Source: Bacteriovoracaceae bacterium | GTDB lineage: Bacteria > Bdellovibrionota > UBA2394 | Direction: 5' to 3' | Length of the DNA stretch: 64,000 nucleotides | NCBI GenBank assembly: GCA_028287765.1 | Contig: JAQBPA010000117.1 | Span: 40,483-104,482, forward strand | In this document: positions 9,355 to 59,810 of the stretch, in pieces | Numbering within the stretch: position 1 is the stretch's first letter | Layout of the letters: every line of letters begins with the position of its first letter | Notes under the pieces: model-generated | Seen by the model: only the letters and a program-made list of their open reading frames with translations | What the model was told of the DNA's origin: nothing | Databases searched by the model: none | Translations under genes and position numbers: made by a program

Positions 9355-9527
9355 CCTTTTTAGTTACCGAGACGGTTTCAATGACGCAAGTTTCGGTTTC
9401 ACTTCTAATCCATTGAATCCATTCGCCTTGCTGCGGGGCTCAAATGGATTCCAGTGAATTTTTTGCGAACGAACCCGATGGATTCTTTGATGCAAGGTTG
9501 TATCAAAAATTCGGGAGCGAAGAGCGT

Positions 9528-40737: not shown

Positions 40738-42588
40738 TTGCGTTTTTATTATCGAGCCTTGTCGTATTTTCGACAAGATTCTGGTCTGATCATTCTACTA
40801 TTAATTTTGACCGCTCTTATAACGGCCTCGGGGCTTCTTATTGCCTGGCCTCTGGCGATCTTGGTCGACTCTGTTTTGGCTCCGGTTCCAAAGAGCGATT
40901 GGATCCACCGAGTTTTTTTGGCTTTGCTTCCCGAAAATAATAAAATGATGCAGATCATCGGCCTCGCATTGATGGGCCTCCTTCTCAAGTTTGCCCAAGA
41001 TATTTTTACAAGCATTCGAACCCTCGTGAATAATGAAATCAATTATAACGGACTACTGAGAGTTCGCTGCGATCTCTTTAAAAAATTGCAATCGCTCTCA
41101 CTCGGCTATCACAACTCGCAACCAGAGGGAGATTCCATTTTTAGACTGAGTACTGACACCTACGGCTGCCAAGCGATTCTCTCGGTGGTCGTCTCAACTC
41201 TCGTCGCCTGTTTAACCTTGATTGCCATGATTTGCATTTTACTTTCGCGAAGCACTCCGCTCACTCTTCTCGCTTTAGCCGTGGTCCCGCCTCTCTTTTT
41301 TGCAAATGTATGGTTTGAAAAAAGACTGAAACGAAAATCCACACGAGCCAAACAAGTCGACTCTGAATTTATGACCAAAGTTCAAAGATCGATTTCTTCG
41401 ATGGGCCTCATCCAGGCGTTTGGACAGGAAAAGCAAGATTTTGAGCACTTTCATAAAACGGCCACCAATAATTTAAAAGCTTGGTGGCATCTCAATCGAG
41501 AAGAAGTTCTCTATACACTAACTGTGGGGGTTATTTTTGGTTTCGGTGCTGCAATCATTTTTGGTTACGGAGGCTACCTTGTTTATCAAAATCAGTTTGT
41601 TTCTCCTCATACCGGCGGACTGACAATCGGCGATCTTATGATTTTTCTTTCGTACCTTACACTTCTCTGGGATCCGATTTGTAAACTCACGGGTGCAAGC
41701 ACAAGCATGCATAGCGGACGCGCGGGATGTGAACGTGTTTTCGAAGTTCTCGATCGTGATTCGGCCATCGTTGATTCTCCAAATGCTGTCAGCCTTGCTC
41801 AAATGCCGAGGACACTTAAGCTGAATGAACTCAGTTTTGGTTACCAGAGTAACCGGCCGATTTTGAAAGATTTAAATCTCGAAATAAAGCCTGGAGAAAT
41901 GGTGGCCTTCGTTGGATCGAGCGGCGTAGGAAAAAGTACTCTCATTAATTTACTGCCTCGATTCTACGATCCGACCTCTGGCTCCATTCACTTAGACGGC
42001 CACGATATGCGTGATATTAAAATTGCAGATCTTCGGCGGCATATTGCCTTAGTGCTTCAAGAAAATATTATTCTTCCGGCGAGTATTGCGGAGAATATCG
42101 CTTACGGTAGACCGTCCGCATCGCTGGATGAAATTAAAAACGCTGCCGTACTTGCCGGCGCTGCCGATTTTATCGAGACGCTTCCCCATGGATACTTCAC
42201 TCAAATTACCGAAAGGGGCCATAATCTCTCAGGCGGCCAGAAGCAAAGAATTTCAATTGCACGCGCTCTTCTCACCGAAGCTCCGATTATTATTTTGGAC
42301 GAGCCGACGAGTGCTCTCGATCCGCATCACGAGTCGGTCATCACTGAAACGCTTCATGCGCTTAAGGGTAAGCGAACCATCATTGTCGTGAGCCATCGGC
42401 TAAGTACTATTCTCGATGCTGATAAAATCTATATGATGATGGGCGGAAAAATAATCGAAAGCGGAACTCATGACGAACTTCTTTCTCAGCGAGGATTTTA
42501 TTATGCGATGGCCCGCCATCAATTAAAACTCGACGAAGGAATTTTTGAATTCCCAAATTCCTCATCTCCCTCGATCTCGAACGCTTAA
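40738..42588 (+). CDS. ABC exporter with fused permease and ATPase (MsbA/PglK-like)
   Basis: Six N-terminal TM segments are followed by Walker A 'GSSGVGKSTLINLL', the signature 'LSGGQKQRISIARAL' and Walker B 'IIILDEPTSALD'. Confidence 0.9.
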   Translation: MRFYYRALSYFRQDSGLIILLLILTALITASGLLIAWPLAILVDSVLAPVPKSDWIHRVFLALLPENNKMMQIIGLALMGLLLKFAQDIFTSIRTLVNNEINYNGLLRVRCDLFKKLQSLSLGYHNSQPEGDSIFRLSTDTYGCQAILSVVVSTLVACLTLIAMICILLSRSTPLTLLALAVVPPLFFANVWFEKRLKRKSTRAKQVDSEFMTKVQRSISSMGLIQAFGQEKQDFEHFHKTATNNLKAWWHLNREEVLYTLTVGVIFGFGAAIIFGYGGYLVYQNQFVSPHTGGLTIGDLMIFLSYLTLLWDPICKLTGASTSMHSGRAGCERVFEVLDRDSAIVDSPNAVSLAQMPRTLKLNELSFGYQSNRPILKDLNLEIKPGEMVAFVGSSGVGKSTLINLLPRFYDPTSGSIHLDGHDMRDIKIADLRRHIALVLQENIILPASIAENIAYGRPSASLDEIKNAAVLAGAADFIETLPHGYFTQITERGHNLSGGQKQRISIARALLTEAPIIILDEPTSALDPHHESVITETLHALKGKRTIIVVSHRLSTILDADKIYMMMGGKIIESGTHDELLSQRGFYYAMARHQLKLDEGIFEFPNSSSPSISNA

Positions 42589-42723
42589 TTCAATTCAACT
42601 ACTCTACTCTACTCCATTTTTATTCCGCCTCCTCTCGTCGGCTAACCAAAGTCTCACTGTCTAAGGTAAGTAGGCTGAAACAGCCGGGTGTGGGAAAAAC
42701 GGAAACACGAAAGGACGTAGCAA

Positions 42724-43845
42724 ATGAAAGAACGCATTTTGATCACCGGAGGAGCTGGATTTATCGGCTCGCATCTCGCGAAAAAACTTACGGCGTCTGG
42801 CTACTCTGTCCGAGTTTTAGATCTGTTCACACCTCAAGTTCACGGAAACGACGGCTTTCAAAAATCTCTACCATCCTTCAGTCGAGATATAGAAGTGATG
42901 CATGGTGATGTGAGATCTCCAAAAGATATTCGCTCGGCACTTCATCATATGGATGTGGTCTATCATTTAGCGGCTTCCGTCGGTGTCGGTCAGAGCATGT
43001 ACGAAGTGCATTCCTATACAAGCCACAATAATTTAGGAACCGCCAACCTTCTTCAGCAGTTGATTGCTCGCCCCATTCAAAAATTGATTGTGGCTTCCAG
43101 TATGAGCCTCTACGGAGAAGGAAGTTATGTGAGTTCGGATGGAAAAATTCACCATTCGATCCGTCGAAATTTTGCGGAAGTTAAACAGAGAAAATGGGAG
43201 CCTCAATTAGAAGATGGTGAGCCATTAGTTCCCATCATGACGCCGGAATCTAAAGCACCCGACCTATCCTCCATTTATGCTCTTTCAAAATACGACCAAG
43301 AGCGAATGTGTCATACCATTGGCCAAGCTTATAACATTCCAACCGTTTCGCTCCGATTTTTTAATGTTTACGGTCGCGGACAATCTCTTTCGAATCCTTA
43401 CACCGGCGTTATGGCCATTTTTGCTTCGCGACTTCTGAATGGAAGTACACCCACCATTTTTGAGGACGGAAATCAAATGCGAGATTTCGTCCATGTCTCC
43501 GATGTAGTTGAGGCTTGCCAGCTGGCTCTCGAAATTCCCGAAGCGGCCGGAGAAGTTTTTAATATCGGAAGCGGCTCGCACTTTCGAATTCAAGAAATTG
43601 CTCGAGCCATGGCCAAAATGATCGGTGTTTCTCTCGAGCCCGAAATTACAGAGCACTACCGCGTGGGCGATATCCGCCACTGTTTTGCGGACATCTCGAA
43701 AGCAAAGCGCCTGCTTGGCTACAGGCCAAAAGTAAATTTAACAGAAGGACTAGCTGATTTAACTCAGTGGCTCGCGGAACAAACCGCGATCGATCATACA
43801 AAAAGAGCGAGGCACGAACTCTATTCTCGAGGGTTAGCCCTATGA
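42724..43845 (+). CDS. NAD-dependent epimerase/dehydratase (extended SDR, nucleotide-sugar modifying)
   Basis: The Rossmann motif is 'ILITGGAGFIGSHLAKKL' and the YxxxK motif is 'YALSKYDQE'. Confidence 0.8.
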   Translation: MKERILITGGAGFIGSHLAKKLTASGYSVRVLDLFTPQVHGNDGFQKSLPSFSRDIEVMHGDVRSPKDIRSALHHMDVVYHLAASVGVGQSMYEVHSYTSHNNLGTANLLQQLIARPIQKLIVASSMSLYGEGSYVSSDGKIHHSIRRNFAEVKQRKWEPQLEDGEPLVPIMTPESKAPDLSSIYALSKYDQERMCHTIGQAYNIPTVSLRFFNVYGRGQSLSNPYTGVMAIFASRLLNGSTPTIFEDGNQMRDFVHVSDVVEACQLALEIPEAAGEVFNIGSGSHFRIQEIARAMAKMIGVSLEPEITEHYRVGDIRHCFADISKAKRLLGYRPKVNLTEGLADLTQWLAEQTAIDHTKRARHELYSRGLAL

Positions 43846-44909
43846 CACCTTACACACTCATCACCGGAGGCGCGGGATTCATCGGAACCAATCTTGCCGA
43901 TCGACTCGCCTCCTCCGGTGAAAATGTTTTAATTCTCGACAATCTTTCTCGGCAAGGCGTGAAGGCCAATTTGATTTGGCTGCTTCAGAATCATCAAAAA
44001 AAAATTAAGTTTGTTCAAAGGGATATACGTAGTTCGGAACGTCTGGATGAATTAGTGAGTGATGCAAGTAGTGTCTTTCATCTCGCTGCACAGGTGGCGG
44101 TCACTTCCAGTCTCTCTGACCCCATCACGGATTTTGAGATCAATACTTACGGCACACTTCGCTTACTTGAAGCACTTCGAAAATTAAAAAATCCGCCCCC
44201 TCTCATCTATACATCCACCAATAAAGTTTATGGCAATTTAAATGACGTCACACTGCAAGAAACCAAAACAAGATATGAACCCATCGAGAGTGAAATCAAA
44301 AATTACGGAATTGATGAATCAAGAAGATTAGAATTCAGCAGTCCTTATGGTTGTTCTAAGGGCGCTGCCGATCAGTACGTTCTTGATTATTCGAAAACTT
44401 TCGGAATGCCGGCCGTCGTCTTTCGAATGAGCTGTATCTATGGTCCTCATCAATGGGGAAATGAGGATCAAGGATGGATTGCCCATTTTGTAAAACAGAT
44501 GCTCGAAGAAACTCCCCTTACACTTTATGGCAATGGCAAACAGGTTCGCGACACACTTTTCATTGATGATCTGATTGATGCTTTTTTATTAGTGAGAGAG
44601 CAAATTCAAGAACTGAAAACTCAGGCCTTTAATATCGGCGGCGGCCCACAAAATACGACGAGCCTTCTTGAACTTCTCCGGCTTCTTTCAGAAAAAAGCC
44701 AGCACCCCATTGATCTTCGCTACGAAAACTGGAGAACTTCAGATCAGCGTTATTATGTTTCGGACGTTCGTAAATTCATGAGCTCGACTGGATGGTTCCC
44801 TCGGGTAAATCTCGATGAAGGCATAAATCACCTCATTCATTGGATGGGTGATCTAAAAAATATAAAACCTCAAAAAGATTCTCAACAAATTTACGAGGCA
44901 TTCGCTTAA
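43842..44909 (+). CDS. NAD-dependent epimerase/dehydratase (extended SDR)
   Basis: The likely start is MTPYTLITGGAGFIGTNL, an ATGA overlap with the upstream gene, rather than the track start at 43767. The catalytic motif is 'YGCSKGAADQY'. Confidence 0.8.
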   Translation: MTPYTLITGGAGFIGTNLADRLASSGENVLILDNLSRQGVKANLIWLLQNHQKKIKFVQRDIRSSERLDELVSDASSVFHLAAQVAVTSSLSDPITDFEINTYGTLRLLEALRKLKNPPPLIYTSTNKVYGNLNDVTLQETKTRYEPIESEIKNYGIDESRRLEFSSPYGCSKGAADQYVLDYSKTFGMPAVVFRMSCIYGPHQWGNEDQGWIAHFVKQMLEETPLTLYGNGKQVRDTLFIDDLIDAFLLVREQIQELKTQAFNIGGGPQNTTSLLELLRLLSEKSQHPIDLRYENWRTSDQRYYVSDVRKFMSSTGWFPRVNLDEGINHLIHWMGDLKNIKPQKDSQQIYEAFA

Positions 44910-44911
44910 TT

Positions 44912-46039
44912 ATGGAACAAAACATTCGACGTATTCTGATGACAGCGGATATTTTTGGAGGCGTTTGGACGTATACACTCGATCTTGCCAGGGAATTTCA
45001 AAAATTAAATATTCATGTCGGAATCGCAGCTCTAGGAGGAACCCTCGATCGAGAACAACGGCGAGAAGTTTTTTCGATTCCCGATATTGACGTATTCGAA
45101 AGCCGATTTCCGCTTGAATGGATGAATGAGCCATGGTCCGCGCTCGAAGCAGGCAGAGAATGGATTTCTAAACTCGAAGAAAATTTTGCTCCCGATATTA
45201 TTCACCTAAATAGCTTCTGTCATCGCCCCGTAGATCCTGGCTGCCTGCAAGTTATCGTGGCGCACTCTGATGTATTTTCCTGGTACAGCGCCGTTTTGAA
45301 CAAAAAGCCGCCGCCAAAGTGGAATCGTTATTACGAAGAAGTTCAAAAAAGTCTGAATGCTGTGGATCTCGTCATTGCTCCAAGTAAGGCGGCTCTTCGT
45401 GATCTCGAAAATCAATTCGGCCCGCTTCCAAATGAAAAACTTTCTATTCCAAATGGATGCCGCGAAATTGAAGAAATAAATGTGTTGAAAAAAAATAGAA
45501 TTTTAAGTGTAGGTAGACTTTGGGACGAAGCGAAAAATATTTCGGCTCTCGACAAAATAGCTGAACAAATTCCTTGGCCGATTCTTGTGGCCGGAAGTGC
45601 TGAGAGCCCGATGGGTGAGGAGGTGATCCTAAATCATGTTTTTCAACTCGGGCATCTTCCTAAAGATCAACTCCACTATGAATTAGCTCGCGCCAGCATT
45701 TATGTTGCGCCAGCAAAATATGAACCTTTTGGTTTAGGAATTCTTGAGGCTGCACTGAATGGTTGTGCACTGGTCTTGGGAGATATACCAAGCCTTAGAG
45801 AAAATTGGGATGGTGCTTGTGTCTTTGTAGATTCAAATCGTCCTGAAGAAATAAAACATGCACTTCTCGATTTCATTTCAGATCCTGCGAAAAGAAAAAA
45901 GTTTGCTTCGCTCTCTCAATCACGTGCTCAAGAGTTTACGAGCAAAAAAATGGCGGGGAGTTACCTGGATGCTTACGGTTCCCTTCTTAAGAAGTACGGG
46001 CGAGCGTCCGTCTCTCGGGAGGCTGCGTGCGCGTTTTAA
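44912..46039 (+). CDS. Glycosyltransferase family 4 (GT-B, group 1)
   Basis: The C-terminal motif is 'EPFGLGILEAALNGCALVLGDIPSLRE'. Confidence 0.75.
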   Translation: MEQNIRRILMTADIFGGVWTYTLDLAREFQKLNIHVGIAALGGTLDREQRREVFSIPDIDVFESRFPLEWMNEPWSALEAGREWISKLEENFAPDIIHLNSFCHRPVDPGCLQVIVAHSDVFSWYSAVLNKKPPPKWNRYYEEVQKSLNAVDLVIAPSKAALRDLENQFGPLPNEKLSIPNGCREIEEINVLKKNRILSVGRLWDEAKNISALDKIAEQIPWPILVAGSAESPMGEEVILNHVFQLGHLPKDQLHYELARASIYVAPAKYEPFGLGILEAALNGCALVLGDIPSLRENWDGACVFVDSNRPEEIKHALLDFISDPAKRKKFASLSQSRAQEFTSKKMAGSYLDAYGSLLKKYGRASVSREAACAF

Positions 46040-47139
46040 TGTTCTATCATTCACTCGTCTCGGATTGGAACCACGGCAACGCTCATTTTTTAAGGGGAAT
46101 TGCGAGTGAGCTGATCTCTCGTGGCCACGCGGTCTGTATCTACGAACCAGAAAATTCTTGGAGTCGACAAAATCTGATCGAGCGTGAGGGTCAGAGTTCT
46201 ATTGAGGCGTTTCATTCGAGTTATCCTTTTTTAAGGTCAACGGTTTACGATATTGACTCCTTTGATTTTGATACAGCTCTCGACGGAGCGGATCTCGTGC
46301 TCGTTCACGAATGGAATTCTCCCGAGCTCATTCAAAAATTGGGAGATCTACGTTCTGAAAGAAATGATTTTGTACTTTTTTTTCATGACACTCATCACAG
46401 ACTCTCGATGACGCCCTTTGAAATGGCCGGCGTCATCCTTCGAAACTATGACGGAGTACTTGCCTTCGGAAAAGTCATCTCCGATTTTTACCGTGATCGA
46501 CAGAATATCGAGAATGTTTGGACTTGGCATGAGGCCGCTGACACACGAATTTTTTATCCAAGGAAATCGGAAACCACTGGCGATCTCGTTTGGATTGGAA
46601 ACTGGGGAGACGGTGAACGAACTCAAGAATTAGAAAACTTTCTCTTTAAGCCGATAGAATATTTAGGACTCGAAGCTTCCATCTACGGCGTTCGATACCC
46701 AGAGGAAGCAAAAAAGCGACTGGCAGAAGCAAATATCTTTTATGGCGGCTGGATTGCAAATTACCGGGCGCCCGAAATTTATTCGCAATATTTATTCACG
46801 GTTCATATTCCGCGCCGTCATTATGTAGAAAGTCTTCCTGGCATTCCGACGATTCGAGTTTTTGAAGCCCTCGCGTGTGGAATTCCTCTTCTCTCCACTT
46901 TTTGGGAAGATGAAGAAGAACTTTTTACGGCCGGAAAAGATTTTTTAATCGCCAAAAATGAATTTGAAGTTCGAAAATGGATGAAAGCTCTTTCGAATGA
47001 ACCAGCTTTAAGAGCGGAGCTTTCTACCCACGGGCGACAAACTATTTTAAAAAGACATACATGTCGACATCGAGTGGATGAGCTCCTCTATATATATCAT
47101 TCGTATAAGTCGAGGGAGGTTCGATGCATCCCCGCCTAA
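46027..47139 (+). CDS. CgeB-like glycosyltransferase (DUF3880 + Glyco_trans_1_2-like), paralog 1
   Basis: The N-terminal motif is 'FYHSLVSDWNHGNAHFLRGIASEL' and the C-terminal motif is 'RVFEALACGIPLLS'. Confidence 0.55.
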   Translation: MRVLMFYHSLVSDWNHGNAHFLRGIASELISRGHAVCIYEPENSWSRQNLIEREGQSSIEAFHSSYPFLRSTVYDIDSFDFDTALDGADLVLVHEWNSPELIQKLGDLRSERNDFVLFFHDTHHRLSMTPFEMAGVILRNYDGVLAFGKVISDFYRDRQNIENVWTWHEAADTRIFYPRKSETTGDLVWIGNWGDGERTQELENFLFKPIEYLGLEASIYGVRYPEEAKKRLAEANIFYGGWIANYRAPEIYSQYLFTVHIPRRHYVESLPGIPTIRVFEALACGIPLLSTFWEDEEELFTAGKDFLIAKNEFEVRKWMKALSNEPALRAELSTHGRQTILKRHTCRHRVDELLYIYHSYKSREVRCIPA

Positions 47140-48200
47140 AATGGTCGTTCTTCGGATCGAGTCTCGTTTCCGCTTACTGGAATGGAGCAGCCACTTATTA
47201 CCGAGGAATGATTCGCGAACTTTCGAAACTTGGTCATGATATCACTTTTTATGAACCCAATGCTTACGATCGACAAAAAAATCGAGATATTTCAGATCCG
47301 TCTTGGGCAGAAGTAGAAGTTTACGAGCCCAATTTTGATTCGCTTTATCAGATGTTAGAGAAAGCGAAAGGATCTGACGTGATTGTAAAAGCAAGTGGCG
47401 TTGGCGTTTTTGATGAGGAACTCGAAAAATCGATTATCGAGCAGAAGCACTCAAGCAGCACTTCTATTTTTTGGGACGTCGATGCACCGGCGACACTCGA
47501 TCGACTTACGGAAAATTTAGAAGATCCTTTTCATTCTTTAATTCCGCAATTTGATTTTATTTTTACCTACGGCGGAGGCCCTCCAGTCGTAAAAAAATAT
47601 AGCAGCTTTGGGGCGCGCGAATGCACTCCGATTTATAACGCTCTTGATCCCCAAACTCATTTTCCAGTTTTTCCCGAGACTCGATTCTCTGGTACTATTG
47701 GATTTCTAGGAAATCGCTTACCAGACCGTGAAGAACGCGTAGAAAATTTATTTTTTGAATCAGCTCGCCGACTCTCTGATAAAGATTTTGTGCTCGGAGG
47801 AAGCGGATGGGCCGACAAATCGATTCCAGAAAATCTCCGTTATTTGGGTCACGTTTATACACACGAACATAATGCTTTTAATTCTTCTCTACTCTCGGTG
47901 CTTAATATTTCGCGAGATTCAATGGCCCGATACGGTTTTTCTCCCGCAACTCGAATCTTTGAGGCCGCCGGAGCTGGCGCTTGTATTCTCACAGATTCTT
48001 GGGATGGAATCGAAAATTTTCTAGAGCCAGGAAGAGAAATTCTCGTTGTTAAAAATGCGGGCGAGATTGTGGAGATTCTCGACAGTTTATCCACAGCAAA
48101 GGCAAAAAAAATAGGCGAAGCGGCTTTCAAGAGAATCAACAGTGAACATACTTATTCAAAACGCGCAAAAGAAGTGGATTCGATTTTGAGGAATACTTGA
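47124..48200 (+). CDS. CgeB-like glycosyltransferase, paralog 2
   Basis: The N-terminal motif is 'FFGSSLVSAYWNGAATYYRGMIREL' and the C-terminal motif is 'RIFEAAGAGACILTDSWDG'. Confidence 0.6.
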   Translation: MHPRLKWSFFGSSLVSAYWNGAATYYRGMIRELSKLGHDITFYEPNAYDRQKNRDISDPSWAEVEVYEPNFDSLYQMLEKAKGSDVIVKASGVGVFDEELEKSIIEQKHSSSTSIFWDVDAPATLDRLTENLEDPFHSLIPQFDFIFTYGGGPPVVKKYSSFGARECTPIYNALDPQTHFPVFPETRFSGTIGFLGNRLPDREERVENLFFESARRLSDKDFVLGGSGWADKSIPENLRYLGHVYTHEHNAFNSSLLSVLNISRDSMARYGFSPATRIFEAAGAGACILTDSWDGIENFLEPGREILVVKNAGEIVEILDSLSTAKAKKIGEAAFKRINSEHTYSKRAKEVDSILRNT

Positions 48201-49310: not shown

Positions 49311-50116
49311 ACGCTGCGAACGAAAGTAATTTTTTTAAAGAAATTCAACAGCTGTCACCGTGGTTCCATAATCTCCACTTCGACGACGGAATCCAAACAG
49401 CGCCCGACCATTTCTTGGGAGATTTTCCAACGAAAAAATGGCAGCAAATCCAAAATGTCATCCCGACAGATCTTAACGGCTGGAACTGCTTGGATATTGG
49501 CTGCAATGCTGGCTTCTATTCGTTTGAACTCGCAAAACGTGGGGCAAGAGTTCTCGGAATCGATTCAGAACCTCATTATCTTAATCAAGCTCGCTGGGCT
49601 TCAAAGATTTACAATCTAAAAAATCCGCCAATCTTTCGTCTCATGCAAATTCACGATCTCGCTCATCTGAATGAGAGCTTCGATCTCATTTTGTTTATGG
49701 GAGTATTCTATCATCTACGATATCCGCTGCTAGCTCTCGATACCATTGCACCCAAGGTAAAAGCATTTATGATTTTTCAAACTCTCACGACGACAAATAA
49801 AAACGACGAGCCCGCTTCGTTTGAGCCCCGAGATAACTATTCATTTGAGGAACGAAGTATATTGAACACTCCTGGATGGCCAACAATGGCGTTCATCGAA
49901 AAATCCTTTTCCGACGATTCCACAAATTGGTGGGTCCCAAGCCATTCTGCTGTCCTCGCTCTTCTTCGCTCGACAGGTTTTTCATCGATCGTACGTCTCG
50001 CACACGAAATTTATATTTGTCGTCCTCCAAAAAAAGGAATTGCCAAGAATCGAATATGGTCTGACGCAGAATGGAAATCTGCAACACGCACAAAAGTAAA
50101 AGGAGAAATAACGTGA
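49307..50116 (+). CDS. Class I SAM-dependent methyltransferase (CmoB/DUF1698-like)
   Basis: Motif I is 'CLDIGCNAGFYSFELAKRGARVLGID' and the post-II motif is 'GVFYHLRYPL'. Confidence 0.65.
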   Translation: MNAANESNFFKEIQQLSPWFHNLHFDDGIQTAPDHFLGDFPTKKWQQIQNVIPTDLNGWNCLDIGCNAGFYSFELAKRGARVLGIDSEPHYLNQARWASKIYNLKNPPIFRLMQIHDLAHLNESFDLILFMGVFYHLRYPLLALDTIAPKVKAFMIFQTLTTTNKNDEPASFEPRDNYSFEERSILNTPGWPTMAFIEKSFSDDSTNWWVPSHSAVLALLRSTGFSSIVRLAHEIYICRPPKKGIAKNRIWSDAEWKSATRTKVKGEIT

Positions 50117-51153
50117 AACATGTCTTAATTACGGGCGGAGCGGGATTCATTGGGTCTCATCTCTGTGATACTTTCATAGCACGTGGTTATGCTGTTACTG
50201 CTATTGATAATTTTCTCACTGGAAAAATATCAAACCTTGACCGGGTAATAAAAAATCCTCATTTCGATTTTTTGAAATGGGACGTATGTGAACCCATTCC
50301 CGTTCAGAAAGTAAGATTTCTTAGTGAATTTGGCCTTCAGGGAATTCTTCACTTCGCTTGCCCCCCGAGTCCTGTTGATTTTGAAAAAATTCCTTTCGAA
50401 ATTCTAAAGGTCGACTCCCTCGGAACAATCAATACCGTTGATCTCGCCATTCAGTATTCAGCTCGCTATCTACTCGCTTCCACTTCAGAAGTGTATGGGG
50501 ATCCACTCGAGCATCCTCAGACTGAAACTTATTTTGGAAATGTAAATTCTGTTGGACCACGCGCGTGTTACGACGAGGCGAAAAGATTCTCGGAAGCCTA
50601 CGTGAGCACAAGTATGCGCGGTCTCGGACTTTATCGAAGTAAAAAATATAAACCGCTCAATGCCGCAATCGTCAGAATTTTTAATACCTACGGGCCCAGA
50701 ATGCGCCAAGACGACGGACGTGTGATTCCAGAATTTTGTACGCAAGCACTTCGAGGGGGAGAACTCCCGGTTTGCGGCGACGGCTCTCAAACTCGAAGTC
50801 TTTGTTTTGTGTCTGATCTGGTGGAGGGAATTGTTCGACTCTTTGAAGGCAATGTTCATAAGCCTGTGAATATTGGAAATCCTGACGAGCGCAGTGTTTT
50901 CGAAATGGCTCGTTTCATTTCGGAATTGGTTTACAAAATGACAGGCGTCTCCTCCAAAATTAAATTTGTACCCGCACGACCTGAAGATCCGAGAAAACGA
51001 AAACCAAATACAGATCTTGCTCAAAAGCTCCTCGGATGGAAACCAAACGTGAGTCTCACAGAGGGACTAAAAATGACGATTCTCTCCATGCAAAATCTCA
51101 TCGCAAGGCCTTTGGCGCATGAAGCCCCGTTTAAAATTCAAAAAGCCCTATGA
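50113..51153 (+). CDS. UDP-glucuronate decarboxylase (UXS)-like NAD-dependent epimerase/dehydratase
   Basis: The GTG start at 50113 is preceded by AGGAG and forms a GTGA overlap with the upstream gene. The Rossmann motif is 'VLITGGAGFIGSHLCD' and the catalytic motif is 'CYDEAKRFSEAY'. Confidence 0.6.
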   Translation: MKHVLITGGAGFIGSHLCDTFIARGYAVTAIDNFLTGKISNLDRVIKNPHFDFLKWDVCEPIPVQKVRFLSEFGLQGILHFACPPSPVDFEKIPFEILKVDSLGTINTVDLAIQYSARYLLASTSEVYGDPLEHPQTETYFGNVNSVGPRACYDEAKRFSEAYVSTSMRGLGLYRSKKYKPLNAAIVRIFNTYGPRMRQDDGRVIPEFCTQALRGGELPVCGDGSQTRSLCFVSDLVEGIVRLFEGNVHKPVNIGNPDERSVFEMARFISELVYKMTGVSSKIKFVPARPEDPRKRKPNTDLAQKLLGWKPNVSLTEGLKMTILSMQNLIARPLAHEAPFKIQKAL

Positions 51154-52076
51154 TCGAAGCCATTAAACTTTGGAACGAACCCAATAATCTTTCTCACTGG
51201 GATTTTACGATAGATCCTGGTTGGAAAGAATTTTCTTATATGACCAAACTGGCTGCCGAAGCGCTGAAAATAATTTATCCCGACTTAACCCTTGTACTGG
51301 GTGGCATTTCTCCGATTGATACGGATTTTCTCAAATTGCTTATACGCGAAAATACTTTAGAAAATTTGGACGCCATCGCTATTCATGGATTTCCGCTAGA
51401 TTGGAATCATTGGAAAATCAATGATTGGCCCAAAAAAATCGCCGCAGTTCAAGCGATTACGCATCTTCCCGTTTGGATTACCGAAGTGGGGGTCTCAAGT
51501 TTTGGTGCAGATGAGATTCAGGAATTTGGACTCATGAGAACAACTGAACTTCTTCTTGGGAAATCAGATCATATTTATTGGTATAGTTTGCTGGATCTCC
51601 CCCCGTCATGGGAAGCAACGACCCGTCATAAAGAAAACGAAGGAAGTTCTTATTACAGACATTTTTATATGGGGCTCATTCGTGCCGACGGAACGCCTAA
51701 GCCAGCTATAAAACATTTCAACCCTGAATTCGGAATCTGCCAGTGGTTTCACTTCGAAGATCCAAGACTCGACTTTGCCGTTGATTGGTTGAAAAAACTT
51801 GGTGTGAGAAAGCTCCGCACCGGCATTAGCTGGGCCGATTGGCGTCGGCCCAATGCTCTTCGCTGGTTCGATCGACAAATGGAAGCGATTAAAGATTTTG
51901 AAGTCACTATTACTCTTTGCTTCACTCCTCCGTCTCGCGGAAAGCGCCCCGACCATACAAGTCCTCCGATGGTCCCAGAAGAATTTGCTGAGTTTGCTTT
52001 GGAAGTCGTAAAGCGCTATGCAGCGCAGATTCACGAAACGCCCCGAAAACTTAGGCTCGTTCATGGATTTAAATAA
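51150..52076 (+). CDS. Glycoside-hydrolase-like TIM-barrel protein (GH5-like motifs, apparently circularly permuted)
   Basis: The protein begins at the strand-4 acid/base motif 'KLWNEPNN'. A nucleophile-like 'VWITEVGVSS' lies mid-protein. A motif usually N-terminal in GH5, 'LGVRKLRTGISWADW', sits near the C-terminus. Confidence 0.4.
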   Translation: MIEAIKLWNEPNNLSHWDFTIDPGWKEFSYMTKLAAEALKIIYPDLTLVLGGISPIDTDFLKLLIRENTLENLDAIAIHGFPLDWNHWKINDWPKKIAAVQAITHLPVWITEVGVSSFGADEIQEFGLMRTTELLLGKSDHIYWYSLLDLPPSWEATTRHKENEGSSYYRHFYMGLIRADGTPKPAIKHFNPEFGICQWFHFEDPRLDFAVDWLKKLGVRKLRTGISWADWRRPNALRWFDRQMEAIKDFEVTITLCFTPPSRGKRPDHTSPPMVPEEFAEFALEVVKRYAAQIHETPRKLRLVHGFK

Positions 52077-53059
52077 ATGCGATCAAGAACGTCGGCGACT
52101 ATTTGAAATTCACGGGCCGATGAATCGAAGCGGCGACTCGATTTTAATTTTTGAACCCACCGAACGGCTGCGCGACCACTCCAGGCATCCGGCGGTTCAC
52201 AGAGTCGACTCGAAGAAGTTCCCAAATATTTTTCAGCAGAAAAATGATAAAATGAACCTGAAATATTTTTAAAACTAAGACCGCCCTTTGTTCCATAAAA
52301 ATTTGCCTGAATAATGGCATCCACCCCAGCCGAGAGATTCCAAGAACAAGCGAGCTGTACAACCGCTCCGTTTGAAAGCCGCAGTGTAGAAAGGGCGTAA
52401 TCCTCTACTTCTTTTGTTCGATCTCGAAGCGGCTTTCCCTTAGAAAATAATTTACTTGAAACGGATTCAATTTTAGGAAAATCCAAAGAATAGAGCGCTA
52501 GATCAATCATATGAATTCCAAGATCCATCACACACCCACCTCCGGAGAGCGCTGGATTATAGAACCAAGCTTTGTCGGGGCCGTAAGCATTATGAAAGAG
52601 AAGATCGATCGCATAAATTTCACCGATTGTTCCACTCTGAATCTCTCGATAGATCGACTCCATCGCCGCCGTATGTCGATAAGATAAGTCGATTCCTAAA
52701 AGACAATCTGCTGTCTCTGCAGCACGAAGGACGGCGGACACTTCACTTGCCGATCTGCCCAAAGGTTTCTGACAAAAAACGGGAATATTTTTTTCGAATG
52801 CTTCTATCGCTTGCTTTGCGTGTTGGGCACTCGGAGTGGCAATCACGATTCCATCTATTTTCTGCTCGAGAAGTTCATCGTAAGATTTAACGGGCTGAGC
52901 AGATGGAAAATCAGAGAGAGCACTCCGTAAGTTTTCTTCGGACGAATCGAAAATAGAATGGATCTCCACTTCCTTTGATTCGGAGAGAGCCTGCATTCGA
53001 TTTTTCCCGATCCAGCCCACTCCCAGAAATCCAAGGCAGGGTTTCGATTTATGATTCAT
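52061..53059 (-). CDS. Gfo/Idh/MocA-family NAD(P)-dependent oxidoreductase
   Basis: The 332-aa ORF has the Rossmann motif 'LGFLGVGWIGKNRMQAL'. Confidence 0.8.
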   Translation of the reverse strand: MNHKSKPCLGFLGVGWIGKNRMQALSESKEVEIHSIFDSSEENLRSALSDFPSAQPVKSYDELLEQKIDGIVIATPSAQHAKQAIEAFEKNIPVFCQKPLGRSASEVSAVLRAAETADCLLGIDLSYRHTAAMESIYREIQSGTIGEIYAIDLLFHNAYGPDKAWFYNPALSGGGCVMDLGIHMIDLALYSLDFPKIESVSSKLFSKGKPLRDRTKEVEDYALSTLRLSNGAVVQLACSWNLSAGVDAIIQANFYGTKGGLSFKNISGSFYHFSAEKYLGTSSSRLCEPPDAWSGRAAVRWVQKLKSSRRFDSSAREFQIVADVLDRIYLNP

Positions 53060-54026
53060 ATTTAATAAAAGCCTTCAGAAATCCTTCCGGTCGATTCATG
53101 GTGGATTCAAAGGCGTCTGAAATCTGATCCAAAAAAAATGAATGTGTCAAAAACTGTGGAGGTGAAATGATTCCAAGAGAAGTCGCGTCGATGGCGGAAT
53201 CGATTCCTTTCAGACAAATTTTTAAATCCCGTTCATGCGCGTTAATCACATCGAGACCCCGCCAGTTCCAAAGTTGCATATTGACCGAGCGCGGCCCATC
53301 TTGATGATATCCCGCAATAACTAGTCGGCCACCCTCTCGAGTTAATTCACCGGCAAGATTGAGAGGCCACTGTTTTCCAACCGCCTCCACCACACAGTCA
53401 AAAAATTTTCCTTCGGTAAGTTCAGAAGCCTTTTTTATAATCTCGCCGTGATCAATCATAGGGATGACTTGATCGGCCCCAAGGTCACTCGCCATCTTTA
53501 AAGCATAATCGCGTCTAGAGATGGCCGTCACCTTTGCCCCGACTTGATGACAGAGTGTCGTAAGAATCGAACCGAGAAATCCAATTCCAATGATGGCGAC
53601 ACTTTCGCCGGAAGATATCTTCATTCGCCTAAATATATTCATAGCGCATCCGAAAGCTTCTCCCGGAAAATTTTGAAAAGATAAATCGTGAGGGATCTTT
53701 AGAACCGACGCTGCCTTCGTGACGTCATATTCTGCATACGCATGATTGGAAAGTGCAGCCACTCGATCGCCAACATTAAATTTCTTAACATTTGATCCGA
53801 GAGCATCGATTGCTCCCCAACCTTCATGGCCGAGTGCACCGGGAGGAAGTGGATAAGTGATCCAGGGCGCTCCACCCCAAGGAACGAGATTCGATGCACA
53901 GACTCCGCAACCCTCCAGTTTAATTCTGACCTCGTCTAATTTGGGTTCCGGAATAGGCGCTTCAGCCATTTCAAAATTTCGAGGGCCCTTGAGCTGAGCT
54001 GCGCGCATAAAGTTTTTCATACACAT
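53049..54026 (-). CDS. Zinc-binding medium-chain dehydrogenase/reductase (MDR)
   Basis: A 'GALGHEGWGAI' GroES-like region and a 'VAIIGIGFLGS' NAD-binding motif are present. Confidence 0.75.
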   Translation of the reverse strand: MCMKNFMRAAQLKGPRNFEMAEAPIPEPKLDEVRIKLEGCGVCASNLVPWGGAPWITYPLPPGALGHEGWGAIDALGSNVKKFNVGDRVAALSNHAYAEYDVTKAASVLKIPHDLSFQNFPGEAFGCAMNIFRRMKISSGESVAIIGIGFLGSILTTLCHQVGAKVTAISRRDYALKMASDLGADQVIPMIDHGEIIKKASELTEGKFFDCVVEAVGKQWPLNLAGELTREGGRLVIAGYHQDGPRSVNMQLWNWRGLDVINAHERDLKICLKGIDSAIDATSLGIISPPQFLTHSFFLDQISDAFESTMNRPEGFLKAFIKYES

Positions 54027-55450
54027 TCCGTAGTTAAGTGTGACTTTTTTAGAGGTGCGCTCGAATCAAGATCCCGAACAAGATGAAGACTGCTATCTTT
54101 AGGAATCGGCCTTTGAACAAAGGGCGATCCTACATCGACATAGGAGAATCCAGAACTTCGAACCAGTTCAGGATTATAAATATTTCGACCGTCGATAATA
54201 TAATGACCGCGCATCACTGAATGAAGGCGTTTAAAATTTAGAGATCGAAATTCTCTCCATTCGGTGAGTAGTAAAACCGCATCCACTCCTTCAGCAGCTT
54301 CGTAGGCATCATCAAGAAGCAAAAGTTTTTTATTTAAAATAGATTTTTCAAATATCTCGCTGGCTCGCCTTTTTGCCACAGGATCGAAAGCTCGAATTTG
54401 AACTCCCTTTTTAAGAAGCTCCTCAATGAGAAAAAGGGCTGGCGCGCCGCGAAGATCGTCTGTGTCTGGCTTAAATGAAAGACCCCAGAGGGCGATCGTT
54501 TTTTGAGAAAGATTCTTTCCAAAAATTCGAATCAGTTTCTCTAATGGCCATTGTTTTTGTTTTTTATTTACCATATCCGTCGCAGATGAGATTTTTAAAT
54601 CGAGCCCGACATCGCGGGCCTGGTAGATAAACGAATGAACATCTTTTGGAAAACAACTCCCGCCGTATCCAATGCCTGGAAAAAGAAAATGCTCACCAAT
54701 TCGAGGATCTCGAATCATTCCTTCTCTGATTTCACGAATGTCCGCGTCGACAAGCTCGGAAAATTGGGAGAGCTCATTGATAAACGATATTTTTGTCGCG
54801 AGAAAAGCGTTACATCCGTATTTAACCAACTCAGCAGATCTTCTCTTCATAAAAAGAAAGCGGTCTTTTTTTAACATGAACGGCTTATAAAGAGCCGAAA
54901 GAATTTTCCGAGCGCGCTCGTCTTCGCTTCCAACAATCACTCGGTCTGGCTTTAAAAAATCCTGAACAGAATTTCCCTGCTTCAAAAATTCTGGATTCGA
55001 AACCACCATGGGCTGATGCCCTTCAGAAAGAAACCACTTTTCGACCTGATCTCCCGTGCCAACGGGTACGGTACTTTTAATGGCGACGATTTTATTTCGA
55101 AGATCTGTCGTCTGCCGAGCAAGCATTGCTACCACAGACTCCACATCATCAAGCCGAGTTCTGCCAGTTTCATCTTCAGGGGTTCCCACAGCAATGAAAT
55201 AAATTTGGCTTAAGCAAAGCTCATCAAAGAATTCAGCCGAGTCCGTATGAACAAATTTGAGATTTCCTCTCTGCACCCCAGAGCGAATGAGATCCGAAAG
55301 ACCGGGCTCGTGAATCGGGATGCCGCCTTTTTTTAAATATTCAATTCGCTCCAGACTTGTATCTGCAACAGCTACGCAGTTTCCACTCGAAGCCAGCCCC
55401 GCTGCCGTTACGAGTCCGACATAGCCAGCTCCAAAAATTGTAATCTCCAT
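54017..55450 (-). CDS. UDP-glucose/GDP-mannose 6-dehydrogenase-family nucleotide-sugar dehydrogenase
   Basis: The N-terminal motif is 'MEITIFGAGYVGLVTAAGLA' and the catalytic Cys motif is 'GYGGSCFPKD'. The ORF is 477 aa. Confidence 0.85.
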   Translation of the reverse strand: MEITIFGAGYVGLVTAAGLASSGNCVAVADTSLERIEYLKKGGIPIHEPGLSDLIRSGVQRGNLKFVHTDSAEFFDELCLSQIYFIAVGTPEDETGRTRLDDVESVVAMLARQTTDLRNKIVAIKSTVPVGTGDQVEKWFLSEGHQPMVVSNPEFLKQGNSVQDFLKPDRVIVGSEDERARKILSALYKPFMLKKDRFLFMKRRSAELVKYGCNAFLATKISFINELSQFSELVDADIREIREGMIRDPRIGEHFLFPGIGYGGSCFPKDVHSFIYQARDVGLDLKISSATDMVNKKQKQWPLEKLIRIFGKNLSQKTIALWGLSFKPDTDDLRGAPALFLIEELLKKGVQIRAFDPVAKRRASEIFEKSILNKKLLLLDDAYEAAEGVDAVLLLTEWREFRSLNFKRLHSVMRGHYIIDGRNIYNPELVRSSGFSYVDVGSPFVQRPIPKDSSLHLVRDLDSSAPLKKSHLTTECV

Positions 55451-55589
55451 TAAAAGTTGATACGTGACGGGGATCAGTCAAGCCTCCAGCTTTCGTCAAC
55501 TTATAACCTTAGTCTGGCGACCTTGGAACGATGTTAAGTCTTTTTAAATCGAGGAAGGCTTCATCACTGTAATAAAGCTGGAGATTTTT

Positions 55590-57419
55590 TTGAAGATTGT
55601 CATTTTTGGATTAACGATTAGCTCATCTTGGGGGAATGGTCATGCCACACTTTGGCGCGGCCTTTGTCGCTCCCTTATCAAACGAGGTCACAAAATTACT
55701 TTTTTCGAAAAAGATGTTCCCTACTACGCACTTCATCGTGATCTTAAAGAGCTACCAGGGTGTATCATGTCTTTTTATTCCGACTGGAATGCGATTCGCC
55801 AGTTTGCAAAATTAGAATTAGAAGAAGCGGATGTCGCCATCGTCACCTCATTTTGCCCTGATGGAATTTCTGCGACAGAAATCGTCTGTGAATCCAATGT
55901 ACGTGTAAAAACTTTTTACGATATGGATACACCGATCACACTTCAAAGTTTACAAGCAGGAAGACTAAATTATATTGGTCCGCGAGGATTAAACGATTTT
56001 GATCTTGTTCTGAGTTATACTGGCGGCTCCGTCCTCGAAGAATTAAAAGAAAAACTCGGTGCGAGAACTGTCTTTCCACTCTACGGATGTGTTGATCCGG
56101 ACGTTCATCGCCCCGTTTCATCTCATCACGATTATGTTTCGGATCTCTCCTATCTCGGCACTTATGCAGATGACCGACAAAATAAACTCAGCCAATTTTT
56201 TATTGAGTCTGCACGAAAACTTCCCGAACGAAAGTTTTTAATTGGTGGGGCTTTGTATCCGACAGCTTTTCCCTGGCTAAAAAATATTCACTTCGCAAAA
56301 CACGTTTCGCCAACAGACCACTCTTCATTTTACTCATCTTCTCGAGTGAGTCTTAATATCACTCGAAGCGCCATGGCCGAGCGAGGATACTGCCCGTCTG
56401 GACGACTGTTCGAAGCCGCCGCATGTGGCTCGCCGATTCTCAGCGACAGGTGGAAAGGAATTGAGCAGTTTTTTTCTCCAAAAGATGAAATCATCATCAC
56501 GGATTCCACAGAAGAAGCACTTGCAGCGATAGAAATGTCAGATTCGGAACTGAATGCGATTTCAAAAGCAGCTCGCAATCGATGTCTCGAAGAACATACG
56601 GCTGATAAACGTGTACTCGAGTTGGAAAAATATTTAGAAAACGTGACACTTACAAAAGCTTATTCGTTTTCAAAACCGGCATGCTGGGGAATCATTCCGG
56701 CCGCGGGAAACGGAAGTCGAATTCAGCCACTCGCTTTTTCAAAAGAACTTCTTCCCGTGGGAAGTCGAGAGGTCGAGAACATCGAAAGGCCAAAAGCTGT
56801 CAGCGAATATTTACTTGAGCGAATGATTCTTGGAGGAGCAGAAAAAATCTGTTTTGTGATCTCGGCAGGAAAATCAGATATTTTGGAATATTACGGCGGA
56901 AAATTTCAGGAAGCAGATCTTTGTTATACAATTCAGCCGAAGCCTGCCGGTCTTTGCGATTCTCTCTTTCGTGCGATTCCGCTCATCCATAGAGAGGACA
57001 ATGTCTTGATTGGACTTCCAGATACCGTTTGGTTTCCTGAAAATGGATTCAAAGAATTAGCCAATTCCAATCTCTCACTTCTTTTATTTCCGGTTCAAAA
57101 TCCAGAACTCTTCGATGCGGTTATTATGAACGGCTCCAAAAAAGTAATAGAGATCGAAGTAAAAAATAAAAAAGCGCGATCTAAATGGGTCTGGGGTGCA
57201 ATCAAAATGCCGGGATCAGCTTTTCATGATCTTTATAAACTTTGGTGCCGACGTCAAAAAACAGATGAATATTTGGGAAGTCTATTAAATGCCTATCTCG
57301 CTGATGGCGGCGAGGTGATCGGCGTGCAAGCTGGAAAATCATACGTAGATGTCGGAACACTGCACGGCTATCGCGAAGCCATCGAAGTCTTGGGGTCAGG
57401 GCACTTAGGGGACAGGTGA
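55590..57419 (+). CDS. Fusion protein: a CgeB-like glycosyltransferase (paralog 4, N-terminal ~350 aa) joined to a sugar-1-phosphate nucleotidyltransferase (RmlA-like, C-terminal ~250 aa)
   Basis: The N-terminal motif is 'IFGLTISSSWGNGHATLWRGLCRSL' and the GT motif is 'RLFEAAACGSPILSDRWKG'. These are followed by the NTP-transferase motifs 'GIIPAAGNGSRIQPL' and 'YTIQPKPAGLCDSL'. Confidence 0.65.
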   Translation: MKIVIFGLTISSSWGNGHATLWRGLCRSLIKRGHKITFFEKDVPYYALHRDLKELPGCIMSFYSDWNAIRQFAKLELEEADVAIVTSFCPDGISATEIVCESNVRVKTFYDMDTPITLQSLQAGRLNYIGPRGLNDFDLVLSYTGGSVLEELKEKLGARTVFPLYGCVDPDVHRPVSSHHDYVSDLSYLGTYADDRQNKLSQFFIESARKLPERKFLIGGALYPTAFPWLKNIHFAKHVSPTDHSSFYSSSRVSLNITRSAMAERGYCPSGRLFEAAACGSPILSDRWKGIEQFFSPKDEIIITDSTEEALAAIEMSDSELNAISKAARNRCLEEHTADKRVLELEKYLENVTLTKAYSFSKPACWGIIPAAGNGSRIQPLAFSKELLPVGSREVENIERPKAVSEYLLERMILGGAEKICFVISAGKSDILEYYGGKFQEADLCYTIQPKPAGLCDSLFRAIPLIHREDNVLIGLPDTVWFPENGFKELANSNLSLLLFPVQNPELFDAVIMNGSKKVIEIEVKNKKARSKWVWGAIKMPGSAFHDLYKLWCRRQKTDEYLGSLLNAYLADGGEVIGVQAGKSYVDVGTLHGYREAIEVLGSGHLGDR

Positions 57420-59809: not shown

Positions 59810-59810
59810 A

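Follow-up and report, generated by a model that had tools for sequence, protein, structure and literature searches.

What does a gene cluster with four CgeB-like glycosyltransferases (GTs) make in a predatory bacterium, and does it need a lipid carrier to make it? The question is raised by a 64-kb stretch of contig JAQBPA010000117.1 from a Bacteriovoracaceae bacterium (Bdellovibrionota; metagenome-assembled genome, assembly GCA_028287765.1, positions 40,483 to 104,482 of the forward strand), hereafter the window. A first-pass annotation had suggested a repeating-unit glycan that might decorate a giant flagellin or a capsule. Our analysis leads to a different answer. By sequence comparison, the locus represents, in Bacteriovoracaceae, an ancient, widely conserved cassette of soluble enzymes, and not an idiosyncratic arrangement. 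The interpretation that we favor, with a probability of roughly one half, is that a defined methylated hetero-oligosaccharide, probably with xylose or uronic acid, would be assembled in the cytoplasm independently of a lipid carrier, and that an ATP-binding cassette (ABC) transporter encoded next to the cassette probably exports it in this lineage.

As a rule, glycan loci are hypervariable and specific to a lineage. In this cassette, by contrast, about twelve soluble enzymes are kept in one order, mostly at 50-77% identity, in about 15 phyla and on rhizobial megaplasmids. Its distribution was traced with Cge3, the third of the CgeB-type GTs (Cge1 to Cge4), in a scan that included one genome per species. 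Orthologs with about 55-61% identity were detected in at least 596 species-level genomes of about 15 phyla. Taxonomy was taken from the best 80 of these matches, which belonged to Verrucomicrobiota, Acidobacteriota, Gemmatimonadota, Planctomycetota, Armatimonadota, Cyanobacteriota, Bacteroidota, Rhodothermota, Myxococcota, Alpha-, Beta- and Gammaproteobacteria, Actinomycetota, Desulfobacterota and Methylomirabilota. Neighboring genes were counted in 51 loci with full flanks, onto which the proteins of the window were mapped; all fractions of 51 given below refer to this set. Core orthologs were 36-69% identical to the window proteins overall, mostly 50-63%, and the order across loci was fixed: SDR1-[GH-like paralog]-SDR2-MDR-GFO-GT4-Cge1-Cge2-Cge3-[Cge4-NTP]-MT-GH-like. 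Here SDR1 and SDR2 are short-chain dehydrogenases/reductases (SDRs), MDR is a medium-chain dehydrogenase, GFO a Gfo/Idh/MocA oxidoreductase, GT4 a glycosyltransferase of that family, NTP a nucleotidyltransferase, MT a methyltransferase and GH-like a protein that resembles glycoside hydrolases (GHs). Orthologs of Cge1 and Cge2 were each found in 47/51 loci (51-57% and 53-63% identity, respectively), GT4 in 46 (36-46%), SDR1 in 43 (52-60%), SDR2 in 42, MDR in 29 (48-57%), MT also in 29, GFO in 26 (47-55%), GH-like in 14, and Cge4 and NTP in 9 each. The window departs from the conserved order only in that MDR and GFO are located in a convergent operon. This wide conservation of the whole cassette is a feature that the first-pass annotation did not contain.

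The usual place of GFO is between SDR2 and GT4. In about 10 loci, the position of MDR and GFO is occupied by a B12-binding radical S-adenosylmethionine (SAM) enzyme of family TIGR04295 (for example, at 5194-6516 in locus L059; others include L009, L033, L039, L055, L058, L062, L070 and L076). The enzyme of the variant locus passes the TIGR04295 model, named 'B12_rSAM_oligo', with 626 bits against a cutoff of 400. Because the radical-SAM enzyme is found in the MDR and GFO position, these variants suggest non-homologous replacement of one step of the pathway.

Plasmid records with a homolog of Cge3 number 148, of which 66 are from Sinorhizobium, 48 from Rhizobium, 10 from Roseomonas, and 5 each from Azospirillum and Paracoccus, among others. 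The set carried by pSymB of Sinorhizobium meliloti (NC_020560.1, about 230.4-247 kb) comprises GH-like, a histidine phosphatase, an inositol-phosphate synthase, a homolog of a kinase-like protein described below, GFO, MDR, SDR1, SDR2, GT4, Cge1-3, a UXS-like SDR and a TIGR04290 methyltransferase. A Rhizobium leguminosarum plasmid carries the same set with a GH-like paralog fused to SDR2. The cassette is present in isolates of S. meliloti (pSymB), Myxococcus, Azospirillum and Pontibacter, and is therefore testable in tractable organisms, not only in an uncultured predator. In the flanks of the rhizobial cassettes (17755-28500 in L092; 18900-20800 in L093), genes are annotated as nutrient-deprivation-induced, BON-domain, DUF4142, ferritin-like and sigma-70-family sigma factor, which may point to stress-linked expression.

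A full-text literature search found no study of the cassette, of its marker families or of the presumed S. meliloti genes; SMb20231, a sugar ABC gene that neighbors the S. meliloti cassette, is mentioned once. The cassette thus appears to be experimentally uncharacterized, though curated family models partly recognize it. Among the closest precedents is the neighborhood of TIGR04290 and TIGR04295 ('meth_Rta_06860' and 'B12_rSAM_oligo'): the methyltransferase of the window passes TIGR04290, and the same gene order is found on rhizobial plasmids. The window differs from this neighborhood in having the convergent MDR and GFO genes instead of the radical-SAM gene, in the addition of UGD (a UDP-sugar dehydrogenase), a Cge4::NTP fusion, the ABC exporter and a dual-specificity phosphatase, and in the lack of inositol-phosphate synthase and histidine phosphatase. 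The neighborhood is probably the one recorded in TIGRFAMs as 'rhizo-twelve', an uncharacterized twelve-gene oligosaccharide cassette.

The locus is a real glycan-biosynthesis locus, with four PF13524 GT-B enzymes and a GT4-family enzyme. Four CgeB-like paralogs, three of them in tandem, had been proposed, and all four pass PF13524 (113.0, 117.6, 131.7 and 126.5 bits; cutoff 25). DUF3880, suggested as a second marker, gave no match in any of the four at E<=0.001. The two motifs described for these proteins, W(N/G)NGHA..YR and R(I/L/V)FEAA(A)CG, are roughly right and not uniform across paralogs: the N-terminal motif reads 'SDWNHGNAHFLRG' in Cge1, 'SAYWNGAATYYRG' in Cge2 and 'SSWGNGHAT..(Y/W)R' in Cge3 and Cge4, and RVFEALACG, RIFEAAGAG and RLFEAAACG are found as C-terminal variants. 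The N-terminal half carries a conserved motif of its own, 'SSWGNGHA'.

Identity among the Cge paralogs is 23-38%, Cge1 being the most divergent (23-25% to the others), while each paralog is 51-63% identical to its positional orthologs in other phyla. Recent tandem duplication is ruled out by the low identity between paralogs, and the comparison identifies them as old, anciently diverged proteins. Distinct roles for the GTs are indicated because they resemble their orthologs more than one another. Homologs of Cge3 number more than 8000, and the best (about 60% identity) are found in unrelated phyla. A sequence comparison of Cge3 with solved structures found no relative, and a profile of the family retrieved from the PDB only remote GT4 entries such as BshA, together with spurious designed TIM barrels. 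The GT4 protein had no equivalog match in NCBIfam and only weak matches to GlgM and GlgA in the PDB.

Cge4 has an additional feature that had not been described: it is fused to a sugar-1-phosphate nucleotidyltransferase. The CgeB-type GT-B part extends to about 56690, and the nucleotidyltransferase domain occupies about 56691-57419 (residues ~367-599); the junction is in frame and has no stop codon. In 11 other loci, Cge4 and NTP lie side by side as two genes. Matches of the NTP domain in NCBIfam and the PDB were only weak, of RmlA and GlmU type. Adjacency and fusion would couple sugar activation to transfer.

The sugars that the cassette handles can be approached through its tailoring enzymes. 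The two upstream SDRs had been annotated as epimerases/dehydratases; the epimerase type holds for both, and the dehydratase alternative does not, as neither has the T-D-E motif. SDR1, with motifs SSMSLYG and YALSK, resembles GalE and UDP-glucuronic acid (UDP-GlcA) 4-epimerases and has an insertion of about 45 amino acids (best PDB matches 4zrm, 6wjb, MoeE5 and 6zl6). SDR2, with motifs STNKVYG and YGCSK (YxxxK), matches over its full length 9rl0 (7.8e-89) and 1orr (8.7e-86), and dehydratases are far behind (about 1e-34). These two structures are CDP-tyvelose 2-epimerases, TaTyvE of Thermodesulfatator and TyvE of Salmonella, respectively (PMC13098431). SDR2 thus appears similar to such enzymes along its entire length and in its epimerase active-site motifs; unlike the systems in which they act, the window has no genes of the CDP-paratose/tyvelose pathway. 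A 6-deoxyhexose pathway was also considered and ruled out by the missing T-D-E motif.

A third SDR, previously described as a UXS-like decarboxylase, matches human UXS1 structures over residues 2-323 (9e-85, 288 bits) and is a predicted UDP-glucuronate decarboxylase, UXS. It was found in 8/51 loci and in rhizobia, and the R. leguminosarum ortholog, located directly after Cge3, is annotated as 'UDP-glucuronic acid decarboxylase family protein'. Annotation of UGD as UDP-glucose 6-dehydrogenase is good at the level of UDP-sugar dehydrogenase (TIGR03026, 393 bits against 190), and the UDP-glucose-specific equivalog TuaD scores 380 bits against a cutoff of 700. UGD was found in 7/51 loci and lies after Cge3 in myxobacterial ones. 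Altogether, about 16 related loci have a gene for supply of UDP-GlcA or UDP-xylose (UDP-Xyl), either UGD or UXS, as the immediate successor of Cge3, which makes xylose or uronic acid in the conserved product plausible; one or the other is probably part of it. The methyltransferase, correctly described as CmoB-like, is a full-length member of TIGR04290 (307.7 bits against 300), and its rhizobial orthologs are named 'TIGR04290 family methyltransferase' by PGAP. The earlier suggestion of a methylated glycan with uronic acid or xylose is therefore plausible. Of the two redox enzymes, GFO has a weak IolG match (106 bits) and PDB matches to 6jw6 and DgpA, and MDR has neither an equivalog nor a close characterized relative.

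The last gene of the block encodes the GH-like protein, for which a barrel had been recognized. It is a clan GH-A-type (beta/alpha)8 barrel (PF11790, 22.8 bits against a cutoff of 21), has no signal peptide and is 68-77% identical across phyla. Its alignment places residues 8-142 on profile positions 72-202. All homologs begin at 'MIEAIKFWNEPNN', that is, at the canonical beta-4 'NEP' strand, and N9-E10-P11 and T111-E112 are invariant among them. In an AlphaFold2 model (pLDDT 78.9, pTM 0.82), eight strands are seen with the NEP and TE motifs on strands 1 and 4; this separation of three strands is the one found between the acid/base (beta-4) and the nucleophile (beta-7) of clan GH-A. Because the invariant NEP/TE pair keeps the GH-A spacing, we read the protein as a circular permutant of the GH-A fold, apparently family-wide, and it is probably a cytoplasmic glycosidase or transglycosylase, putatively active. 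Matches of the model to GH10, GH53 and GH128 structures are weak or partial, as expected for a circular permutant; TM-scores of only 0.36-0.49 do not permit assignment to a specific GH family. Some sources annotate the family as 'beta-xylosidase'. A GH-like paralog, not found in the window, lies between SDR1 and SDR2 in 20/51 loci. It is fused to the N-terminus of SDR2, giving proteins of about 680-700 amino acids, at 6596-8638 of L093 (R. leguminosarum WSM1325 plasmid pR132503) and 1-1762 of L088.

All proteins of the cassette are soluble and free of signal peptides, with the ABC exporter as the exception. That Wzx, Wzy, Wzz and Wza are missing had been noted before, and none was found in the 64-kb window; a search of the same window found no Wzm/Wzt, initiating phosphoglycosyltransferase, PglB, PglC, WecA, WbaP or ligase. 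When 82 related loci were examined within 10 kb of Cge3, 44 polytopic membrane open reading frames (ORFs) were detected, among which only type-I ABC exporters recur; there was a single Bac_transf gene (1/82 loci), and no flippase, polymerase or ligase family. The cassette appears to bypass lipid-carrier chemistry. The proposal of a repeating-unit glycan does not agree with these data, since a polymerase, a flippase, a chain-length regulator, a ligase and a recurrent initiating transferase are all missing from the window and the 82 loci. Five distinct, anciently diverged GTs are present, and a defined hetero-oligosaccharide therefore fits better than a repeat-unit polymer.

Decoration of the flagellin or a capsule is not supported either. 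The flagellin gene lies about 30 kb away, and the cassette is present in Myxococcus, Sorangium, cyanobacteria, Bacteroidota and Solirubrobacterales. To our knowledge, myxobacteria, cyanobacteria and gliding Bacteroidota have no flagella, and Solirubrobacterales, an actinobacterial order, have no outer membrane. A role in flagellin modification or in a standard O-antigen or capsule is unlikely because many hosts lack flagella and lipid-carrier genes are absent nearby. Flagellin glycosylation was rejected on host range and distance. Comparison with pgl, pse and leg clusters, which had been recommended, gave NCBIfam scores far below cutoff in all cases (PglJ 24/500, LegB 144.6/475, PseB 39/408). 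The flagellin itself (889 amino acids; 9444-12113, + strand) has normal Flagellin_N and Flagellin_C ends, a large central FG-GAP insert with six FG-GAP_3 stretches and a weak dockerin-like segment, and its gene is not linked to the glycan locus.

In the main rival explanation, undecaprenyl diphosphate at the inner face of the membrane carries a growing oligosaccharide or repeat unit, which would be flipped by a PglK- or MsbA-like ABC transporter and then moved to flagellin, lipopolysaccharide or capsule. A half-size transporter is indeed encoded 136 nt upstream of SDR1 and on the same strand, as first annotated; homologs adjoin the cassette in 12 related loci (32-58% identity; 58% in L045, 45% in L088, and 42% in L030 and L053), several GTs and nucleotide-sugar genes lie together, and an initiating enzyme or ligase could be encoded elsewhere. 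The likeness to Campylobacter Pgl, a half-size type-I ABC exporter beside several GT-B genes, does not extend to the families involved. The exporter, with six transmembrane-like segments, scores below the cutoff of its best NCBIfam models (CphA-associated 392/880, HepA 378/725, MsbA equivalog TIGR02203 390.3/602, PglK 182.5/1000), so that the comparison with PglK, as first drawn, stands as a functional analogy only. PglB and PglC are missing and PglJ is far below cutoff, as stated above; most cassettes have no ABC exporter, and the taxa without flagella or outer membrane and the remote flagellin gene count against the proposed destinations as well. On balance we consider this explanation unlikely.

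A second alternative, to which we also attach a low probability, is that the product is a methylated oligo- or polysaccharide or a stress protectant retained in the cytoplasm, akin to the mycobacterial methylglucose lipopolysaccharides (MGLP) and methylmannose polysaccharides (MMP), and that the ABC exporter is an unrelated neighbor. The solubility of all core enzymes and the lack of a transporter in most loci agree with it, and so does the stress-related neighborhood of the rhizobial copies. Soluble GT4 enzymes, a SAM-dependent methyltransferase, a TIM-barrel glycosidase and a histidine-phosphatase step (the last in related loci) parallel the MGLP and MMP sets. However, five GT orthogroups speak against a homopolymer, the window has a single methyltransferase and no acyltransferase, and glucosylglycerate genes are missing from the cassette. 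In addition, lineages as distant as Ignavibacteria (L088), Phycisphaerae (L045) and myxobacteria have the ABC exporter and the kinase-like gene at the same place as the cassette.

The kinase-like gene, u585, and a phosphatase gene that ends 8 nt upstream of it extend the system of the window beyond the coordinates first given. No Pfam or NCBIfam match was found for u585, and a Pfam scan of 40 homologs gave scattered weak matches, likely spurious (best E 0.003), with no consistent family. The family is made of 'hypothetical' proteins of about 600 amino acids that share 34-38% identity. An AlphaFold2 model (pLDDT 89.8, pTM 0.91) was compared by Foldseek, which retrieved LicA (2.8e-9), choline kinases, NahK and APH; the C-terminal half is thus predicted to have a small-molecule kinase fold of the choline-kinase/LicA/NahK/APH type. 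In the N-terminal half, GxRxIG and DEGPGxSGSSF are invariant. By eye only, these motifs look like a phosphoribosyl pyrophosphate loop, as in phosphoribosyltransferases (PRTases). The cassette has a homolog of u585 within it or next to it on S. meliloti pSymB and in Chloroflexia, Bdellovibrionales, Gemmatimonadales, Kofleriaceae and others (loci numbered L087-L092), and in Ignavibacteria the homolog is followed by an ABC exporter, the same arrangement as in the window. The phosphatase/kinase-like pair recurs in Cystobacter fuscus (L090; 46% identity), and in a Myxococcales locus (L060) a phosphatase homolog lies directly after the methyltransferase and GH-like genes (43% identity). A Bdellovibrionales homolog of u585 (L089, 11784-13859) adjoins an alpha-amylase-family gene, and in a Gemmatimonadota genome (L005/L011, 15956-20394) GlgC-like, alpha-amylase-family and MalQ genes are found close to Cge3 and Cge4-NTP; this association with alpha-glucan metabolism may be a coincidence.

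Some related loci (L002, L086, L088 and L092, the last being S. meliloti) contain an extended module made of an inositol-phosphate synthase, a second GT4 that is MshA-like, a PIG-L deacetylase and an MSMEG_4193-like histidine phosphatase, with two FemAB-like acyltransferases in some cases. The module lies beside Cge3, Cge4, NTP, MT and GH-like, and in L086, from Thermithiobacillus tepidarius, Cge1, Cge2 and the SDRs are missing. Counterparts of the early steps of mycothiol and bacillithiol synthesis (Ino1, MshA/BshA and MshB/BshB) can be recognized in these loci; nevertheless, scores are far below equivalog cutoffs, no cysteine ligase is present, and none of these genes is found in the window. 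The module is similar in its logic to the first steps toward mycothiol, a hint that the primer may be of inositol type.

These observations also bear on a third alternative, that of a cluster for a cyclitol-containing, aminoglycoside-like pseudo-oligosaccharide, in which the APH-fold kinase, the phosphatase and the ABC transporter would act in export coupled to phosphorylation or in self-protection, as is the case for streptomycin clusters. Besides the extended module, one may cite the weak resemblance of GFO and MDR to inositol/inosose dehydrogenases, the B12-radical-SAM substitutes, the joint presence of a protein with an APH/choline-kinase fold, an ABC exporter and a methyltransferase, the location on plasmids in rhizobia and a patchy distribution within phyla. 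Yet an aminotransferase, an amidinotransferase and a cyclase are missing, the window has no inositol module, and clusters for secondary metabolites do not usually keep 50-77% identity and strict synteny over about 15 phyla. We regard such a product as improbable.

CgeB itself is known from the Bacillus subtilis spore crust, and the likeness lies in the shared C-terminal PF13524 GT-B domain and probably in the use of soluble enzymes, with no polyprenol carrier, to assemble a glycan. The differences are that cgeA, cgeC-E and the sps legionaminic-acid genes were not found in the window, and that the cassette has four anciently diverged paralogs and occurs in non-spore-forming hosts. Direct cytoplasmic glycosylation of a protein by the GTs, as proposed for CgeB, would be in keeping with the shared domain, with the lack of lipid-carrier genes and with the cytoplasm of the mother cell as the site where crust glycans are made, but is very improbable given that the cassette encodes no conserved candidate acceptor protein and no cge or sps partners.

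Returning to cytoplasmic assembly of a hetero-oligosaccharide, we infer the following scheme. UGD and UXS would supply UDP-GlcA and UDP-Xyl, and the NTP domain would activate a sugar-1-phosphate. SDR2 may epimerize a nucleoside diphosphate (NDP)-hexose at C2, as CDP-tyvelose 2-epimerases do, SDR1 would carry out a C4-type epimerization, and MDR and GFO a further redox step. GT4 and Cge1-4 might then add one residue each, in the cytoplasm, onto a soluble primer that is not a polyprenol. The product would be methylated by the TIGR04290 enzyme and trimmed or transglycosylated by the permuted GH-A barrel, and the kinase-like/phosphatase pair may handle a phosphorylated primer or intermediate. In lineages with the attached gene, including that of the window, the MsbA-like half-transporter would carry the finished product across the inner membrane.

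Several points weigh against this scheme. All substrate assignments rest on homology below equivalog cutoffs, and the window has only one methyltransferase. WecA is usually encoded elsewhere. As an initiating phosphoglycosyltransferase may likewise be encoded elsewhere, its absence at the locus is no proof of carrier independence. The inositol-module proteins of L086 gave no matches in the window by tblastn. Only 6/51 loci have an ABC exporter within 10 kb, several of these copies are just 32-34% identical to that of the window, and export may not belong to the conserved function of the cassette.

A bolder proposal, possible in our opinion and put forward tentatively, is that the cassette makes a new class of glycan: a defined, O-methylated oligosaccharide that contains xylose or uronic acid, is built entirely by soluble enzymes, without a polyprenol, from a small primer of phosphorylated or cyclitol type, and is either retained or exported by an MsbA-like transporter. 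It would be shared by rhizobia, myxobacteria, cyanobacteria, Acidobacteriota and predatory Bdellovibrionota; the CgeB-type GT-Bs would be its dedicated, structurally uncharacterized transferase family, and two further proteins, the permuted GH-A barrel and the one with PRTase-like and kinase halves, would be new enzyme types. Several families of the system, namely the CgeB-type GT-B branch, the 585-amino acid kinase-like protein and the permuted GH-A barrel, have no solved structure or Pfam model.

The gene map (Table 1) was defined by ORF listing and by Pfam and NCBIfam profile scans of the window. It agrees with the gene calls made for the same sequence in an independent assembly, which place the start of SDR2 at an ATG at 43842 and that of UXS at 50113. 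A + strand block of ten genes had been reported at 42724-52076; the coordinates are correct and the genes are nine, which is also the sum of the genes then listed. These genes were said to overlap start to stop, which is true of 6/8 junctions, the other two merely abutting (-4, +2, -13, -16, 0, -4, -4 and -4 nt, in order). The convergent operon (UGD, MDR and GFO) followed by a fourth CgeB-like GT is borne out by the ORF, Pfam and NCBIfam calls. Promoter and terminator scans of the window gave counts equal to the shuffled expectation and are therefore uninformative on operon boundaries.

Table 1. Genes of the cassette and its upstream extension in the window (positions of the 64-kb stretch).
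Feature	Position	Strand	Basis and remarks
Dual-specificity, Cys-based phosphatase, 174 amino acids, HCxxGxxRS	38354-38878	+	Pfam DSPc 1.4e-10; probable accessory part
u585, two-domain soluble kinase-like protein, 585 amino acids	38887-40644	+	Predicted structure and Foldseek
MsbA-like half-size type-I ABC exporter (transmembrane domain-nucleotide-binding domain)	40738-42588	+	ABC_membrane and ABC_tran; lineage-variable accessory part
SDR1, predicted extended-SDR NDP-sugar epimerase	42724-43845	+	Pfam Epimerase in two stretches
SDR2, CDP-tyvelose 2-epimerase-like, predicted NDP-hexose epimerase	43842-44909	+	PDB matches, motifs
GT4-family GT-B glycosyltransferase	44912-46039	+	Glyco_transf_4 and Glycos_transf_1
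Cge1, CgeB-type GT-B	46027-47139	+	PF13524 1.4e-32
Cge2, CgeB-type GT-B	47124-48200	+	PF13524 5.5e-34
Cge3, CgeB-type GT-B	48201-49310	+	PF13524 2.6e-38
SAM-dependent methyltransferase (MT), CmoB-like fold	49307-50116	+	TIGR04290; Methyltransf_9
UXS-like SDR (SDR3)	50113-51153	+	Human UXS1 structures
GH-like (beta/alpha)8 barrel, cytoplasmic	51150-52076	+	PF11790 22.8 bits
Gfo/Idh/MocA oxidoreductase (GFO), sugar or cyclitol dehydrogenase-like	52061-53059	-	Pfam
MDR (Zn-alcohol dehydrogenase-type) dehydrogenase	53049-54026	-	ADH_N and ADH_zinc_N
UDP-glucose (NDP-sugar) 6-dehydrogenase (UGD)	54017-55450	-	Three UDPG_MGDP_dh domains; TIGR03026
Cge4::NTP fusion, 609 amino acids	55590-57419	+	PF13524 1e-36 and NTP_transferase 3.1e-7

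Other genes of the window deserve brief mention. Four ORFs of 246-408 amino acids, at 12110-13327 (-), 13450-14568 (-), 18832-20058 (+) and 34663-35403 (+), have no Pfam match at E<=0.01. At 58355-62003 (+), a short TamA/Omp85-like protein (484 amino acids, weak matches) is followed by a short TamB-like protein (730 amino acids), both far smaller than those of the canonical translocation and assembly module. Overlapping genes for subunits B and A of topoisomerase VI, in a bacterial genome, are located at 15012-16772 and 16765-17865 (+), with Topo-VIb_trans and TP6A_N/Toprim domains, respectively.

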